DNA of 32,000 nt. Source: Candidatus Altimarinota bacterium (GTDB lineage: Bacteria; Patescibacteriota; Gracilibacteria; UBA1369). Location of the stretch: the NCBI GenBank assembly GCA_041659405.1, contig JBAZYK010000002.1, positions 60,001 through 92,000 of the forward strand, written 5' to 3'. The notes below the pieces were generated by a model. It was given only the letters and a program-made list of their open reading frames with translations, ran no database searches and had not been told where the DNA came from. Below are positions 21,781 through 30,835 of the stretch, one piece after another. Position 1 is the first letter of the stretch. Every line of letters starts with the position of its first letter. Position numbers and translations under genes: made by a program.

Positions 21781-21897
21781 TCTTGGCAGCGCCCTACTTT
21801 CCCCTTACTGATAGTATGAGTATCATCGGCGAAGAGTGGCTTAACTTCTGTGTTCGGGATGGGAACAGGTGTACCCCACTCTCTAGAGCTACCAAGA
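21781..21897 (-). rRNA. rrf: 5S ribosomal RNA
   Basis: The reverse complement contains CCTGTTCCCATCCCGAACACAGAAGTTAAGCC...GCCGATGATACT...AGTAGGGCGCTGCCAAG. The helix I arms are cttggtag/ctgccaag. Flanking complementary extensions reach 21775 and 21903. Confidence 0.88.
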
Positions 21898-22127
21898 CAG
21901 TGCCTTCTAAAATATAAATTTTAAAGTAACACCGTCTTTTAAATTGGGCCTGAAAACATTTAATTCTGTTGTTTCGTTTCTTCTTATATCCAGATTTCGC
22001 TGGACGTTTGCCTGAATCTTCACTCAGCGCTAGTTAAAAGAAGCCATCGTGTGCCAGTACTCAATCCCGCCAAGGCGGGACTAAGTACTGACACAATGTA
22101 CTTTTTACGGCCGTGCCGTAAAGATAA

Positions 22128-25100
22128 AATCAAAATAAGTCGATCGCCTGTTAGTACCTCTCGGCTGAACATATCACTATGTGTACACCTGAGGCCTATC
22201 AACCCGGTAGTCTCCCGGGAGGCTAATTGGGAAATTTTATCTTGAGCAGGGTTTCCCACTTAGATGCTTTCAGCGGTTATCCCTTCCGAACATAGCTACT
22301 CTGCCGTGCCACTGACGTGACAACAGATACACTAGAGGTTCGTTCGCCCCGGTCCTCTCGTACTAGGGGCAACTTCTCTCAAATTTCCTGCGAATATGGA
22401 GGGTAGAGGCCGACCTGTCTCACGACGGTCTGAACCCAGCTCGCGTACCGCTTTAATGGGCGAACAGCCCAACCCTTGGGACCTTCTTCAGCCCCAGGAT
22501 GCGACGAGCCGACATCGAGGTGCCAAACCGGGTCGTCGATGTGAACTCTTGGACCCGATCAGCCTGTTATCCCCGGCGTAACTTTTATCCGTTGAGCGAT
22601 AGTCCACCCACATGGAACTATCGGATCACTATCACCTGCTTTCGCATCTGCTCGACGTGTCAGTCTTGCAGTTAAGCTCTCTTGTGCGATTACACTATCA
22701 GCTTGATTTCCATCCAAGCCTAGAGAACCTTTGCGCGCCTCCGTTACTCTTTAGGAGGCAACCGCCCCAGTCAAACTACCCACCAAACAATGTTCCCCTG
22801 ACGGATTAACATCAGAAGTTAGAGGCGAAATATATCAAGGATGGTATCTCAACGGCCGCTCCACATGAACCAAAGTCCACGCTTCAAAGCGTCCCATCTA
22901 TCCTGCGCAAGATATATCTCGACTCAATGTCAAGTTGTAGTAAAGCTGCACGGGGTCTTTTCGCCCTACCATATTTAATCGGCATTTTTACCGACTCTGT
23001 AATTTCACCGGGCCTCACGTTGAGACAGTCTTCACACCATTAAACCATTCGTGCGGGTCGGAACTTACCCGACAAGGAATTTCGCTACCTTAGGACCGTT
23101 ATAGTTACGGCCGCCGTTCACCAGGGCTTAGATTCAGAGCTTGCACCCCTCCTCGTGACCTTCTGGCACCGGGCAGGCTTCAGCCCCTATACATATTCTT
23201 ACGAATTTGCAGAGACCTGTGTTTTTGGTAAACAGTTGCATGAAGTCATTTACTGCGGCCGAAACTTCTAAATCGAAATCTAAAAGTTCCGGCAAGGTTT
23301 ATCCCGAAGTTACACCTGCTGTATTGCCGAGTTCCTTAACGTGAGTTAGCCCGATCACCTTAGTATACTCTACTCATCCACCAGCGTTGGTTTGCGGTAC
23401 GGAAACCTACTTTTCTCGCTACCGAGGTTTTTCTTGACACCTGATGTGACTGGAATCGCTCATCTTGCGATGAGTAATTTGCGTAACAACTCGCGAACTC
23501 TGACGGATTTACCTATCAAAGCATAAGCTTGTTGCTTGCACGTGAATTCATTAACACGCTCCAGCTAACCTGATGTGTTACCCCTGAGCTAGCGCCACAC
23601 CCGATCATTGCTCACCAGAATCTAAACCGAAGTCTAGAAACTGACTTACAAATCTCAAAGTGTATTGCTTTGGCGAAAAATAAGTTGTACAGGAATATTA
23701 ACCTGTTGTCCATCAGCTACGCCTTTCGGCCTCACCTTAGGACCGACTAACCCCAAGTCGATTAACGTTGCTTGGGAAACCTTGGATTTACGGTGGTCTG
23801 ATTTTTCATCAAACTTTAAACGTTACTCATACCATCATTTTTACTTCCTAGCGCTCCACCTAGCCTTACAGCACGGCTTCACAGCACTAGGAACACTCCT
23901 CTACCGCTTAGTATAAGAATCACAAACAACGAAAATAATTCGCGATTTATGAATCTTATACTAAGCCCGTGTCTTCGGTTATAACTTTGAGCCCCGTTGA
24001 ATTTTCGGCGCGTCGTCACATAGACCAGTGAGCTATTACGCTTTCTTTAAAGGATGGCTGCTTCTAAGCCAACCTCCTGGTTGTATAAGTAACGATACAT
24101 CCTTTACCACTTAAGTTATATTTGGGACCTTAGACGGCGGTCTGGGCTGTTCCCCTTACGACAATGGCACTTAGCTGTCACTGTCCGACTCCCACACATA
24201 CACACCAGTATTCGAAGTTTATCTAGATTTGGTAGAGTGATTTACTCCCCTAGTCTAAATAGAGCTCTACCCCTGATGCTCTTAATTGTGAGGCTAGTCC
24301 AAAAACTATATCGAGGAGAACCAGCTATCGCCGAGTTCGATAGGAATTTCTCCACTACCCACAGCTCATCACCGGATCTTGCAACATCCGTGTGTTCGGC
24401 CCTCCATACACCTCTCGATGTACTTCAGCCTGGCCATGGGTAGCTCACTCGGTTTCGGGTCTAGAGCATGACACTGATCGCCTTATTCAGGCTCGCTTTC
24501 ACTACGGCTTCGGGTATAACTCCCTTAACCTGTGCGCCATACTGCTAACTCGATGGTCCGTTCTCCAATAAGTACGCGGTCACCCTTGCGGGCTCCCACT
24601 CCTTGTAAGCATAAAGTTTCAGATTCTATTTCATCCCCCTCACCGGGGTGCTTTTCACCTTTCCCTCGCGGTACTTGTTCACTATCGATCACCAAATCTA
24701 TTTAGTCTTGGAAGATGGTCCTCCCGGATTCAAGCCGGATTCCACGTGTCCGACCCTACTTAAGAGAATATCACAACTTATAAACCTACTTTCACCGACG
24801 GGACTGTTACCCTCTATGGTGGTCCTTTCCAGGTTCCTTTGGTTAATAGGAATACAAATTGCCACACTTTACAGTTTGTGGAAGATACTTCTTACAACAC
24901 CAACCATGCAACGGCTGTAACCTTACACATGATTGGTTTAGACTGATCCCATTTCGCTCGCCACTACTTTGGGAATCGCGATTGCTTTCTCCTCCCTGGG
25001 TACTAAGATGTTTCAATTCTCCAGGTGTCCACCCCTTGCGGGGTTATCTGACATGACTCAGATAGGGTTGCCCCATTCGGAAATCTCCGGGTCAAAGCTT

Positions 25101-25200
25101 ACTTAGCAGCTCACCGAAGCTTATCGTAGCTTGTTACGTCCTTCATCGGAATTTGGTGTCAAGGCATCCACTTTATGCTCTTATGAGTAACTTAGTTTGA
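22128..25200 (-). rRNA. rrl: 23S ribosomal RNA (~3.07 kb, with expansion segments)
   Basis: The reverse complement has the 5' AAGTGGATGCCTTG..CCGATGAAGGACGT and GTPase-centre AGCGTAATAGCTCACTGG. It also has the peptidyl-transferase region GGATAACAGGCTGAT..ACATCGACG, the sarcin-ricin AGTACGAGAGGACCGG, and the 3' GGTACTAACAGGCGATCGACTT. Helix 1 pairs 25190-25203 with 22127-22140. Ends are +/-10 nt. Confidence 0.93.
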
Positions 25201-25306
25201 TTTACCCTTTTAACTAGCTGTGAGCAAAGACTCAAAGCTAATTAAGATCGAAACTAACATTTATTATTATATTTAATTTACAGAATTTTAATGTTCTACT
25301 GCCCAA

Positions 25307-29092: not shown

Positions 29093-30593
29093 AAAGGAGG
29101 TGATCCATCCGCAGGTTCTCCTACGGATACCTTGTTACGACTTAGTCCCAATCAATGATTTTACCTTAGAGCCCCGCTAAATTAGCTAAGGGCGCTTCGG
29201 GCACTCCCATCTTTCATGACTTGACGGGCGGTGAGTACAAGACCCAGGAACATATTCACCGCAATATTGCTGATTTGCGGTTACTAGCGATTCCGGCTTC
29301 AAGAAGGCGAGTTGCAGCCTTCTATCCGAACTGGGACCGGTTTTTGGGATTAGCTCAGAGTTGCCTCTTTGCATCTCACTGTACCGGCCATTGTAGCACC
29401 TGTGTAGCCCAAGACATAAGGGCCATGCTGATTTGACGTCATCCTTACCTTCCTCCGACTTAGAGCCGGCAGTCTCCTAAGAAAAATGCAACTTAGGACA
29501 AGGGTTGCGCTCGTTCACGGACTTAACCGAACACCTCAAGGCACGAGCTGACGACAACCATGCAGCACCTGTCACCTGATTCCTTACGGCACATCCACCT
29601 TTCGGCAGACTTCCAGGGATGTCAAGTCTTGGTGAGGTTCCTCGCTTACTATCGAATTAAACCAGATGCTCCACCGCTTGTGTGGGTCCCCGTCTATTCC
29701 TTTGAGTTTTAGTCTTGCGACCGTACTACCCAGGCGGATCACTTAATGCGTTAGCGACGGCACTGAAGGGGTCGAGACCTCCAACACCTAGTGATCATAG
29801 TTTAGGGCGTGGACTACCGGGGTATCTAATCCCGTTTGCTCCCCACGCTTTCGTTCTTGAGTGTCAGAACAGGTCCAGCAGACTGCCTTCGCTTTTGGTA
29901 TTCCTCTGTATATCTACGGATATTACCCCTACATACAGAATTCTATCTGCCTCTACCTGCCTCTAGTCTGCCAGTTTAGGAAACCAATCCTGAGTTGAGC
30001 TCAGGGATTTAACATCCTACTTAACAAACCACCTACGAACTCTTTACGCCCAATAATTCCGGATAACGCTTGCATCCTACGTCTTACCGCGGCTGCTGGC
30101 ACGTAGTTAGCCGATGCTTATTCCTGAGGTACCTTCAAAATTATTCCCTCAGAAAAGGAGTTTACAACGAAAACGCCTTCATCCTCCACGCGGTGTTGCT
30201 TCGTCAGGGTTTCCCCCATTGCGAAAGATTCCTTACTGCTGCCTCCCGTAGGAGTATGGGCCGTGTCTCAGTCCCATTGTGGCTGATCGTCCTCTCAGAC
30301 CAGCTACCCGTCATAGCCTTGGTAAGCCATTACCTCACCAACTAGCTGATAGGCCGCAGGCACCTCTCAGAACGCATTGCTGCTTTACCCTTTCGGGACC
30401 ATCCGGTATTAGACCCTATTTCTAAGGCTTATCCCTGATTCTGAGGTAGTTACCAACGTATTACTCACCCGTCCGCCGCTCCCAGGACGCTATCTTCAAT
30501 TCTTAATTGAAAACAAGGTCCTGGGCGCTCGACTTGCATGTATTATACACACCGCCAGCGTTAATCCTGAGCTAGGATCAAACTCTTCGGATA
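29093..30593 (-). rRNA. rrs: 16S ribosomal RNA (~1.5 kb)
   Basis: The reverse complement starts GAAGAGTTTGATCCTAGCTCAGGATTAACGCTGGCGG. It contains GTGCCAGCAGCCGCGGTAAGAC, GGATTAGATACCCCGGTAGTCC, GCATGGTTGTCGTCAGCTCGTG and TGTACTCACCGCCCGTCA. It ends AAGTCGTAACAAGGTATCCGTAGGAGAACCTGCGGATGGATCACCTCCTTTCT. Confidence 0.95.
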
Positions 30594-30748
30594 AATTCAA
30601 CCCTAAGGTTGAAAATAGCAAAGAAATTTGAATTCTTGCTTGCTTTGATTCTGGCGAACCAAAGACTTAATTTTTAATTTAGTACGACATTTGCTTTCCG
30701 GGGAGGAAAACAAATGCAATTACGCATGACTTCTCTATTACATCCTGA

Positions 30749-30761
30749 ATGTTAAAGAACA
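30749..30761 (-). promoter_or_regulatory. boxA-like antitermination element in the 16S leader
   Basis: Minus-sense TGTTCTTTAACAT versus E. coli boxA TGCTCTTTAACAA (11/13). It lies between the promoter and the 16S processing-stem strand. Confidence 0.5.
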
Positions 30762-30806
30762 AACCAAATGCTTGTGAGCACATAAAACATACTCGAAAGC
30801 AGGACA

Positions 30807-30835
30807 ATTTTAGTGAATGGGGTCGACGAAGTCAA
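30807..30835 (-). promoter_or_regulatory. sigma70-type promoter for 16S rRNA
   Basis: Minus-sense TTGACT (30835-30830), a 17-nt spacer, then TAAAAT (30812-30807). It is preceded by an A/T-rich UP-like tract (aaagaaattgtaaaaatcttc) and lies about 205 nt upstream of the mature 16S 5' end. Confidence 0.6.

Follow-up and report, generated by a model that had tools for sequence, protein, structure and literature searches.

Organisation of the split rRNA locus

The sequence analysed here, hereafter the window, is a 32,000-nucleotide (nt) stretch (G000:C2:60001-92000) of a bacterial genome of 1.51 Mb in 21 contigs, and carries a ribosomal RNA (rRNA) locus in which the 16S and 23S genes lie far apart and the 23S gene is preceded by a conserved, structured leader. 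Rfam models placed the 16S rRNA at 29093-30593 (1481.9 bits), the 23S rRNA at 22131-25197 (2591.1 bits) and the 5S rRNA at 21781-21896, all on the minus strand. The same strand carries tRNA-Ala(TGC) at 28301-28377 and, 3′ of it, tRNA-Ile(GAT) at 28186-28262, both located by ARAGORN as well as Rfam. The Rfam boundaries give a 16S-to-23S gap of 3,895 bp, in agreement with the original prediction, made from the sequence alone, that the rRNAs and spacer tRNAs share the minus strand with a gap of about 3.9 kb. The protein genes that it had named in the gap, encoding a zinc-ribbon protein, an ATP-grasp enzyme, HemW on the opposite strand and an 81-amino acid (aa) membrane protein, were likewise found by Pfam and NCBIfam searches together with open reading frame (ORF) analysis. 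Counting the rRNA genes, a check proposed with that prediction, gave one copy each of 16S, 23S and 5S in the genome, with the locus mid-way along a contig of 160 kb.

The gap was compared in relatives belonging to the same family and order; of these 40 genomes, 13 have both 16S and 23S on a single contig. In all 13 the two genes share a strand, with gaps of 1.2, 2.3, 2.5, 2.9, 3.0, 3.2, 3.9, 4.2, 4.3, 4.6, 4.7, 9.5 and 11.7 kb; in one further relative they are on separate contigs. A closed 1.49-Mb chromosome of another genus (L005 = G020 = OZ246407.1) displays the zinc-ribbon gene, tRNA-Ala, the ATP-grasp gene, antisense hemW, the 81-aa gene and 23S, with protein identities of 58-73% to the window. 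The same order in a closed chromosome argues against misassembly. The comparison with relatives, which had been suggested along with the idea that an operon was dismantled in this genome, was thus carried out and revealed a stretched gap throughout the order, the layout being inherited order-wide instead (13/13 relatives, 1.2-11.7 kb). Altogether, it is quite probable that the window holds the sole rRNA locus of a Peregrinibacteria/Peribacteria-type Candidate Phyla Radiation (CPR) bacterium, in a stretched or split state that was inherited by the whole order and is expressed as separate transcription units.

The placement of 23S across the class was surveyed with a DNA search using the first 598 nt of the gene. 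Compact loci with gaps of 120-500 nt were found (for example G061, G073, G085, G106, G116 and G126), as were fully unlinked loci with the genes 80-565 kb apart (for example G056, G075, G043, G071, G065 and G110), and stretched loci occur in this order and in family f27. In family f28 (G102:C1:124885-129580; G080:C4:120132-124860), 23S apparently precedes 16S in a reversed order, with both on one strand and a few hundred nt apart.

Unlinked 16S and 23S genes had been mentioned in the original prediction as a known feature of some lineages, and surveys of CPR genomes agree. Brewer et al. (bioRxiv 10.1101/705046; later ISME J 2020) placed Patescibacteria among the clades with unlinked rRNA genes, using a criterion of >1,500 bp, and Lui et al. 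2021 (PMC8172020), who classed the genes as unlinked in 27 of 34 closed CPR genomes, named as type D, ‘unlinked by distance’, those with >2 kb and an opposite-strand gene between the two genes. With 3,895 bp the window lies beyond the distance of Brewer et al., and with the plus-strand hemW (26198-27334) in its gap it belongs to type D of Lui et al. It resembles the loci of both surveys in its separation of >1,500-2,000 bp, its clade-specificity, its single-copy rRNA set and the small genome, and the Peribacteria genome paper (PMC4736985) also reported only single rRNA copies. The two surveys give distances and intervening genes, but not the recurring promoters and terminator, the constant 81-aa gene or the 23S leader switch described below.

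The split layout is therefore ordinary for CPR bacteria, and here it proves to be ancestral to an order. What goes beyond the known CPR split is a conserved 23S leader that, from its predicted elements, is shaped like an attenuator. Separate 16S and 23S-5S units also exist in Thermus thermophilus, Rickettsia (with fmt before 23S), Buchnera and Wolbachia. The window is similar to these in that 23S-5S appears to form its own unit with its own promoter, and Rickettsia also has a constant protein gene before 23S, which is fmt there and an uncharacterised 81-aa membrane protein in the window. Unlike those genomes, in which the units are scattered, the window keeps the ancestral order and strand, with the spacer only stretched. 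The locus is a well-resolved example of a split arrangement: its mapped features comprise three promoters that recur in relatives, one terminator, the two processing stems and the two boxA elements.

Transcription units and processing signals

The gaps of the relatives were oriented and scanned for strict promoter motifs and for hairpin-plus-U-run sites. The 16S promoter that had been proposed at 30807-30835 on the minus strand (TTGACT-17-TAAAAT) was recovered in a consensus scan, and the motif TTGACT-17-TA(A/G/C)AAT recurs 170-240 nt 5′ of 16S in eight related loci. A putative intrinsic terminator at 28538-28561 (minus strand; 9-bp stem followed by a T-run, -16.6 kcal/mol) would end the 16S unit, and an intrinsic terminator follows 16S, or the zinc-ribbon gene where present, in nine related loci. 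The tRNAs are preceded by a predicted promoter of their own, TTGCAA-16-TATAAT, at 28409-28437 on the minus strand, found by motif scan and repeated about 45 nt 5′ of tRNA-Ala(TGC) in eight related loci. A consensus promoter was also detected before 23S in all scanned related loci. These predicted sites, repeated from genus to genus, support three units, comprising 16S with the zinc-ribbon gene, tRNA-Ala-tRNA-Ile with what lies downstream, and 23S-5S. At least three units had been postulated originally, and the recurring promoters and terminator bear this division out, whereas the linkage of the ATP-grasp gene to the tRNAs that it included is not conserved in relatives. A canonical rrn operon has a single promoter region ahead of 16S and lacks internal promoters and terminators between 16S and 23S; here two promoters (28437-28409 and 25528-25500) and a terminator (28561-28538) are predicted inside the locus.

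Both the 16S and the 23S gene are enclosed by leader-trailer helices. On the minus strand, the 16S leader (30700-30767) pairs with the trailer (28980-29045) in a duplex of -51.6 kcal/mol, compared with -21.4 ± 3.8 kcal/mol for shuffles, the longest Watson-Crick run being 15. The 23S leader (25198-25239, minus strand) pairs with its trailer (22009-22049) at -43.1 kcal/mol, compared with -19.3 ± 3.9 kcal/mol. The two processing stems described earlier are thus well beyond shuffle energies. Reading of the sequence also revealed boxA-like 13-mers on the minus strand in the 16S leader (30749-30761) and in the 23S leader (25307-25319), the latter adjoining the U-run of the leader hairpin in most relatives. 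The genome encodes nusB, nusA and rnc (RNase III), so that the components expected for boxA/Nus antitermination (boxA-like elements in both leaders, nusB and nusA) and for RNase III processing (helices around 16S and 23S, and rnc) are present. nusB and rnc, the genes of two factors acting on rRNA leaders, are adjacent on the same strand (G000 C5:69370-70237, minus).

Based on these predictions, transcription from the 16S promoter would run through the boxA leader, 16S and the zinc-ribbon gene to the terminator at 28561-28538. The tRNA promoter would give rise to tRNA-Ala, tRNA-Ile and, in this genome, probably the ATP-grasp gene, with hemW being transcribed from the opposite strand. 3′ of the 81-aa gene, the 23S promoter would drive the structured leader, boxA, 23S and 5S up to the U-run after 5S, and 16S and 23S would be freed via their own leader-trailer stems, presumably by the encoded RNase III.

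The 23S promoter and its position

A predicted 23S-5S promoter, TTGACT-N17-TATAAT, is located at 25500-25528 on the minus strand, 16 nt past the stop codon of the 81-aa gene, and matches 11 of 12 consensus positions. Its hexamers are invariant, with a variable spacer, in all 12 aligned relatives, and in 46 of 50 species-level genomes the strict pattern was found in the interval from the 81-aa gene to 23S. The original prediction had reported no convincing 23S promoter between the terminator and boxA and regarded a TATAAT downstream of boxA as the only one. The promoter at 25528-25500, with its own TATAAT at 25505-25500, was overlooked because it is located 5′ of the supposed terminator. Of the two terminators described at that time, both exist as hairpin-plus-U-run sites (-16.6 and -18.6 kcal/mol), but the hairpin at 25389-25364 cannot simply close the preceding unit: it lies 3′ of the 23S promoter and so belongs to the 23S leader. 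The U-run of this hairpin abuts boxA in most relatives, leaving no space for another promoter. With the promoter 5′ of the hairpin and the U-run abutting boxA, all 23S transcription must traverse a terminator-like site. When strict promoter and boxA patterns were applied before the unlinked 23S genes of eight other families, only some matched, suggesting that the promoter motif is not simply transferable beyond the order.

Structure of the 23S leader

In the 23S leader, a 13-codon mini-ORF is followed by a long stem that covaries and overlaps a terminator, then by a U-run and boxA. The 195-nt leader folds better than its shuffles (z = -6.45), and its minimum-free-energy fold contains a long stem at 25381-25440 on the minus strand (5′ strand about 25440-25420, 3′ strand about 25399-25381), which is a candidate antiterminator. 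In an alignment of 25 sequences this stem displays compensatory changes in 9 of 15 pairs, 92.5% of the cells are paired compared with about 50% in slid controls, and its covariation score of 0.476, compared with 0.29 ± 0.02 for shuffles, was reached by none of 500 shuffles. The terminator-like hairpin with its U-run (25357-25389, minus strand; hairpin 25389-25364, -18.6 kcal/mol) was found in 25 of 25 leaders, directly adjoined by the U-run in 23. In the window, 9 nt are common to the terminator's 5′ strand and the 3′ strand of the long stem. The minimum-energy fold of the relatives alternates between a full stem with a short hairpin and a shortened stem with a full terminator. A search of 25190-25560 against Rfam at E-values up to 10 gave chance-level matches only, the best being sbrA with 18 bits against a cut-off of 45 bits; the 23S leader belongs to no catalogued RNA family.

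The mini-ORF, at 25414-25455 on the minus strand, has 13 codons and UAA (AUG at 25455-25453, UAA at 25416-25414), spans the stem's 5′ strand and ends in the apical loop. AUG-started ORFs of 9-16 codons are present in 24 of 28 leaders and start 16-28 nt before the stem; their stop codons are in the 5′ strand or the loop, save for one leader stopping in the 3′ strand. Dinucleotide shuffling of the upstream part predicted 10.1 such ORFs compared with the 24 observed, a number that 20,000 simulations never attained. In 18 sequences the AUG falls in one shared alignment column, and the frame relative to the stem varies by clade, yet remains open. A short, promoter-proximal ORF overlapping the first strand of the switch, as expected for an attenuator, is thus present (25455-25414), but the mini-ORF peptides contain no run of one amino acid that would serve as regulatory codons. 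Shine-Dalgarno motifs precede 3% of 761 long ORFs in this genome compared with 8% of random windows, and the missing Shine-Dalgarno site of the mini-ORF is normal because the genome does not use such sites. The regions upstream of start codons in G000 are G-poor and A/U-rich, and the 3′ end of its 16S rRNA is still CCUCC.

When 101 genomes of the class were searched with a covariance model of the leader, 11 gave a single match each, every one directly before the 5′ end of 23S; these genomes include G042 and G071, in which 23S is far from 16S and the 81-aa gene is elsewhere. ORFs of 8-12 codons ending in the 5′ strand of the stem were found in six leaders from families f20, f27, f30 and f42. 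In G042, G121, G090 and G066 the 3′ strand of the stem constitutes effectively the whole 5′ strand of the terminator, so that the predicted switch is cleaner there than in the window. No publication describing such a 23S leader was found in the literature searched.

A possible attenuator of 23S-5S transcription

Combining the promoter position, the covarying stem and the mini-ORF, we put the odds that the 23S leader is a translation-sensing attenuator at about even. The full proposal, that a leader-peptide-type attenuator gates 23S-5S transcription in Peregrinibacteria, with ribosomes on the ~13-codon mini-ORF causing termination before boxA and 23S, is given a probability of roughly 45%. In an untranslated leader the long stem would form first and deprive the terminator of the basal pairs next to the U-run, and the polymerase would continue to boxA, load Nus factors and transcribe 23S-5S. 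A ribosome on the mini-ORF, or at its stop codon, would cover the 5′ strand of the stem, leaving the 3′ strand to complete the terminator, and the transcript would end before 23S. Plentiful idle ribosomes would then result in less 23S-5S synthesis. With three segments and no amino-acid codon run, such an element would sense translation as such.

The proposed device is similar to the trpL, hisL, pheL, thrL and leuL attenuators in that a mini-ORF overlaps one strand of an antiterminator, the other strand of which is shared with an intrinsic terminator before the regulated genes. Those systems, however, regulate amino-acid operons and have four segments and a codon run for a single amino acid, while the product of the window leader is rRNA and the leader has three segments and no run. 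In contrast to the trpL type, plain translation should here terminate and its absence should allow read-through, in a host without use of Shine-Dalgarno sites. E. coli rrn leaders also contain a hairpin before boxA. The window resembles the E. coli boxB/boxA/boxC system (NusA/B/E/G) in the boxA-like 13-mers of both leaders, the hairpin before the 23S boxA and the presence of nusA and nusB, but differs in that the 23S hairpin has a U-run and is located before boxA, and that the 16S boxA is without a hairpin. Given this position, a Nus complex cannot protect the polymerase from the hairpin terminator.

In model bacteria, rRNA synthesis is matched to need through control of initiation, by guanosine tetraphosphate (ppGpp) and nucleoside triphosphate levels, not by attenuation. 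If the attenuator exists, it would provide a direct physical feedback from translational capacity to large-subunit rRNA synthesis, which the uncoupled state of 23S and 16S would allow or require, and thus a different and mechanically simple answer to the classic question of rRNA supply. It would also hint at a way in which the two ribosomal subunits are kept in balance by organisms whose single rRNA set is unlinked.

Several observations weigh against an attenuator. In the window the stem and the terminator overlap by just 9 nt, and an apical hairpin of 4-6 bp can coexist with the full long stem. The minimum-energy fold does not settle on one of its two states among the relatives. The terminator hairpin is conserved in sequence with little covariation, a measure that is uninformative here as its GU/AC repeat pairs equally well when slid by 2. 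Two of 25 leaders are without a U-run and four of 28 without an AUG-started mini-ORF. The leaders are related, with about 14 of 18 sequence groups carrying the ORF, so the mini-ORF counts overstate independence; and since the conserved stem encodes the peptide's C-terminal half, peptide similarity adds nothing. boxA lies 3′ of the terminator, and no such element is present before 16S, leaving the throttling of 23S only unaccounted for, as is the tight linkage of the 81-aa gene to 23S. Finally, the unit boundaries, promoters and terminators are computational predictions with conservation as their sole backing.

Alternative explanations

The main rival keeps the split locus as described and takes the 23S leader to be purely structural or for processing, whether as a hairpin of the boxB kind, a site for RNase III or a pause for Nus loading, with the mini-ORF untranslated; this is possible, somewhat short of even odds. 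The hairpin before boxA in E. coli rrn leaders would find its counterpart here, a long, nearly perfect stem would suit RNase III as a substrate in a genome with rnc, and the 16S leader does without the element. A hairpin that keeps its sequence instead of covarying, the two leaders without a U-run and the four of 28 without an AUG ORF fit this explanation equally. It does not predict the excess of AUG codons with a frame open into the stem (24 compared with 10.1 expected, 0/20,000 simulations), nor that the frame stays open as its register with the stem differs between clades. The U-run abutting the hairpin in 23 of 25 leaders also speaks against it, and the other families, in which the 5′ strand of the terminator is wholly the 3′ strand of the stem, point to a switch design and not a plain hairpin.

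The remaining explanations are considered improbable to differing degrees. A promoter (25528-25500), a structured RNA and an intrinsic terminator (25389-25357) together have the usual shape of a small-RNA gene and could delimit a stand-alone RNA of about 135 nt, with 23S transcribed from elsewhere or by incidental read-through. This is unlikely, as boxA follows the U-run in most relatives, with no room for a further 23S promoter and no other conserved one, the element is always directly before 23S, even where 23S is isolated, and Rfam gave no match up to an E-value of 10. We consider it very unlikely that the locus is still one operon, in which a boxA-modified polymerase reads from 16S to 5S past both terminators and the internal promoters serve as boosters. 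In its favour, all rRNA and tRNA genes retain their order and strand, and boxA and Nus factors are present, but antisense hemW stands in the path in 7 of 13 loci, the strong terminator after 16S is conserved in nine loci, the gaps of relatives reach 9-15 kb with many genes on both strands, and Lui et al. (PMC8172020) class such loci as unlinked. That the gap is an assembly artefact joining unrelated contigs can nearly be dismissed: misassembly is common in rRNA regions and this draft genome has 21 contigs, yet the same gene order recurs in closed chromosomes and long contigs of other genera, and the locus is centrally placed in its 160-kb contig, each rRNA occurring once.

The 81-aa membrane protein gene

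The gene preceding the 23S promoter (25545-25790, minus strand) encodes an 81-aa protein of two hydrophobic helices joined by an invariant AE..G.GGT loop, for which there is no Pfam family; a Pfam scan of 17 members gave only sub-threshold matches to unrelated membrane families (DUF973, Deltameth_res). It is the sole protein gene common to all gaps of the compared loci. Of the 59 best loci, 47 have it 200-724 nt 5′ of 23S in the same orientation, and two more have it at about 1.1 kb; it is likewise found before 23S in five further genomes of the same order and in families f27 and f30. In family f33 (G055, G070, G082, G093 and G123) the gene is divergent from the 5′ end of 16S at a distance of 265-660 nt, and in family f32 (G054) it is 718 nt 3′ of 16S. 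Other families and more distant CPR phyla have the gene away from the rRNA genes. This constant rRNA neighbourhood, recurring in differing configurations, represents an unexplained linkage between a membrane protein and rRNA.

A conserved promoter of the gene's own was not found in upstream alignments, which are too divergent. Because there is no terminator between the 81-aa gene and the 23S promoter, its mRNA probably ends at, or reads past, the leader terminator. Between hemW and the 81-aa gene, the spacer (25791-26197) is 408 nt long in the window compared with 50-110 nt in relatives. It contains an ORF of 49 codons on the minus strand (25902-26051; 49-67 codons, no family match) and a promoter-like site with an 18-nt palindrome between its hexamers (26083-26112, minus strand), which faces this ORF and the 81-aa gene. 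The extra stretch of about 300 nt with palindrome promoter and ORF is missing from the relatives, and the ORF has no homologue in their gaps. The palindrome, GGTGAGT-N4-ACTCACC, is placed between the -35 and -10 elements and occurs at about seven genome sites, several of them inside TTGAC...TATA(C/A)T promoters; those elsewhere in G000 are at C1:141257, C1:~202150, C4:49718, C5:85325, C8:13710 and C8:33511. Judging from this distribution, it looks like the operator of some repressor regulon.

Other genes and features of the locus

The zinc-ribbon gene (28586-28861, minus strand) encodes a 91-aa double zinc-ribbon protein of treble-clef type (zf_Tbcl and a CxxC-x17-CxxC motif; Pfam and NCBIfam). 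It was found in only four genomes, where it is placed between the 16S trailer stem and the terminator, and in loci without it the terminator is directly 3′ of 16S. No conserved promoter was detected in the spacer between 16S and the zinc-ribbon gene of its four carrier genomes, the upstream alignments being divergent. The gene was probably absorbed into the 16S unit and co-transcribed with 16S. In the 16S trailer and spacer (28862-29092, minus strand), a GGTCGAG heptamer is conserved about 60 nt 5′ of the zinc-ribbon start in the window and in L005, L007 and L009, and is present twice in the 16S trailer of the window; it may be a processing or binding site.

The order of the spacer tRNAs, Ala-Ile, is the opposite of the usual bacterial Ile-Ala, and, among loci L002-L013, Ala precedes Ile in all 11 fetched relatives having both tRNAs on the rRNA strand. 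Locus L005 is without tRNA-Ile, and in L003 tRNA-Ala is on the opposite strand. A tRNA-Ala(GGC) is additionally present in some relatives.

The RimK-family ATP-grasp gene (27326-28171, minus strand; Pfam/NCBIfam) starts 15 nt past tRNA-Ile, and was found in the gap only in the window and L005 among the fetched loci. Since no terminator intervenes, its co-transcription with the tRNAs is plausible in this genome. The idea that the zinc-ribbon and ATP-grasp proteins form a LysW/LysX-type carrier pair was rejected, as LysW matches were far under the cut-off and the C-terminus is basic, not acidic. hemW, encoding a radical S-adenosylmethionine haem chaperone (26198-27334, plus strand, antisense to the rRNAs; TIGR00539, 292.9 bits against a cut-off of 205.4), keeps its position and antisense orientation in 7 of 13 loci. 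Tail to tail, hemW and the ATP-grasp gene share 9 nt (27326-27334) with no terminator between them, so that transcription from the tRNA promoter would enter hemW antisense.

At the end of the locus, the 5S rRNA has a lengthened terminal helix followed by TTTTT (21772-21896, minus strand, from Rfam and reading of the sequence). The extension of the helix is formed by GGCACUGUC ... GACAGUGC and stands before the TTTTT within 21772-21910 on the minus strand. It is likely that this TTTTT marks the end, or terminator, of the 23S-5S unit. Downstream of 5S, repeated motifs are present at 21541-21771.

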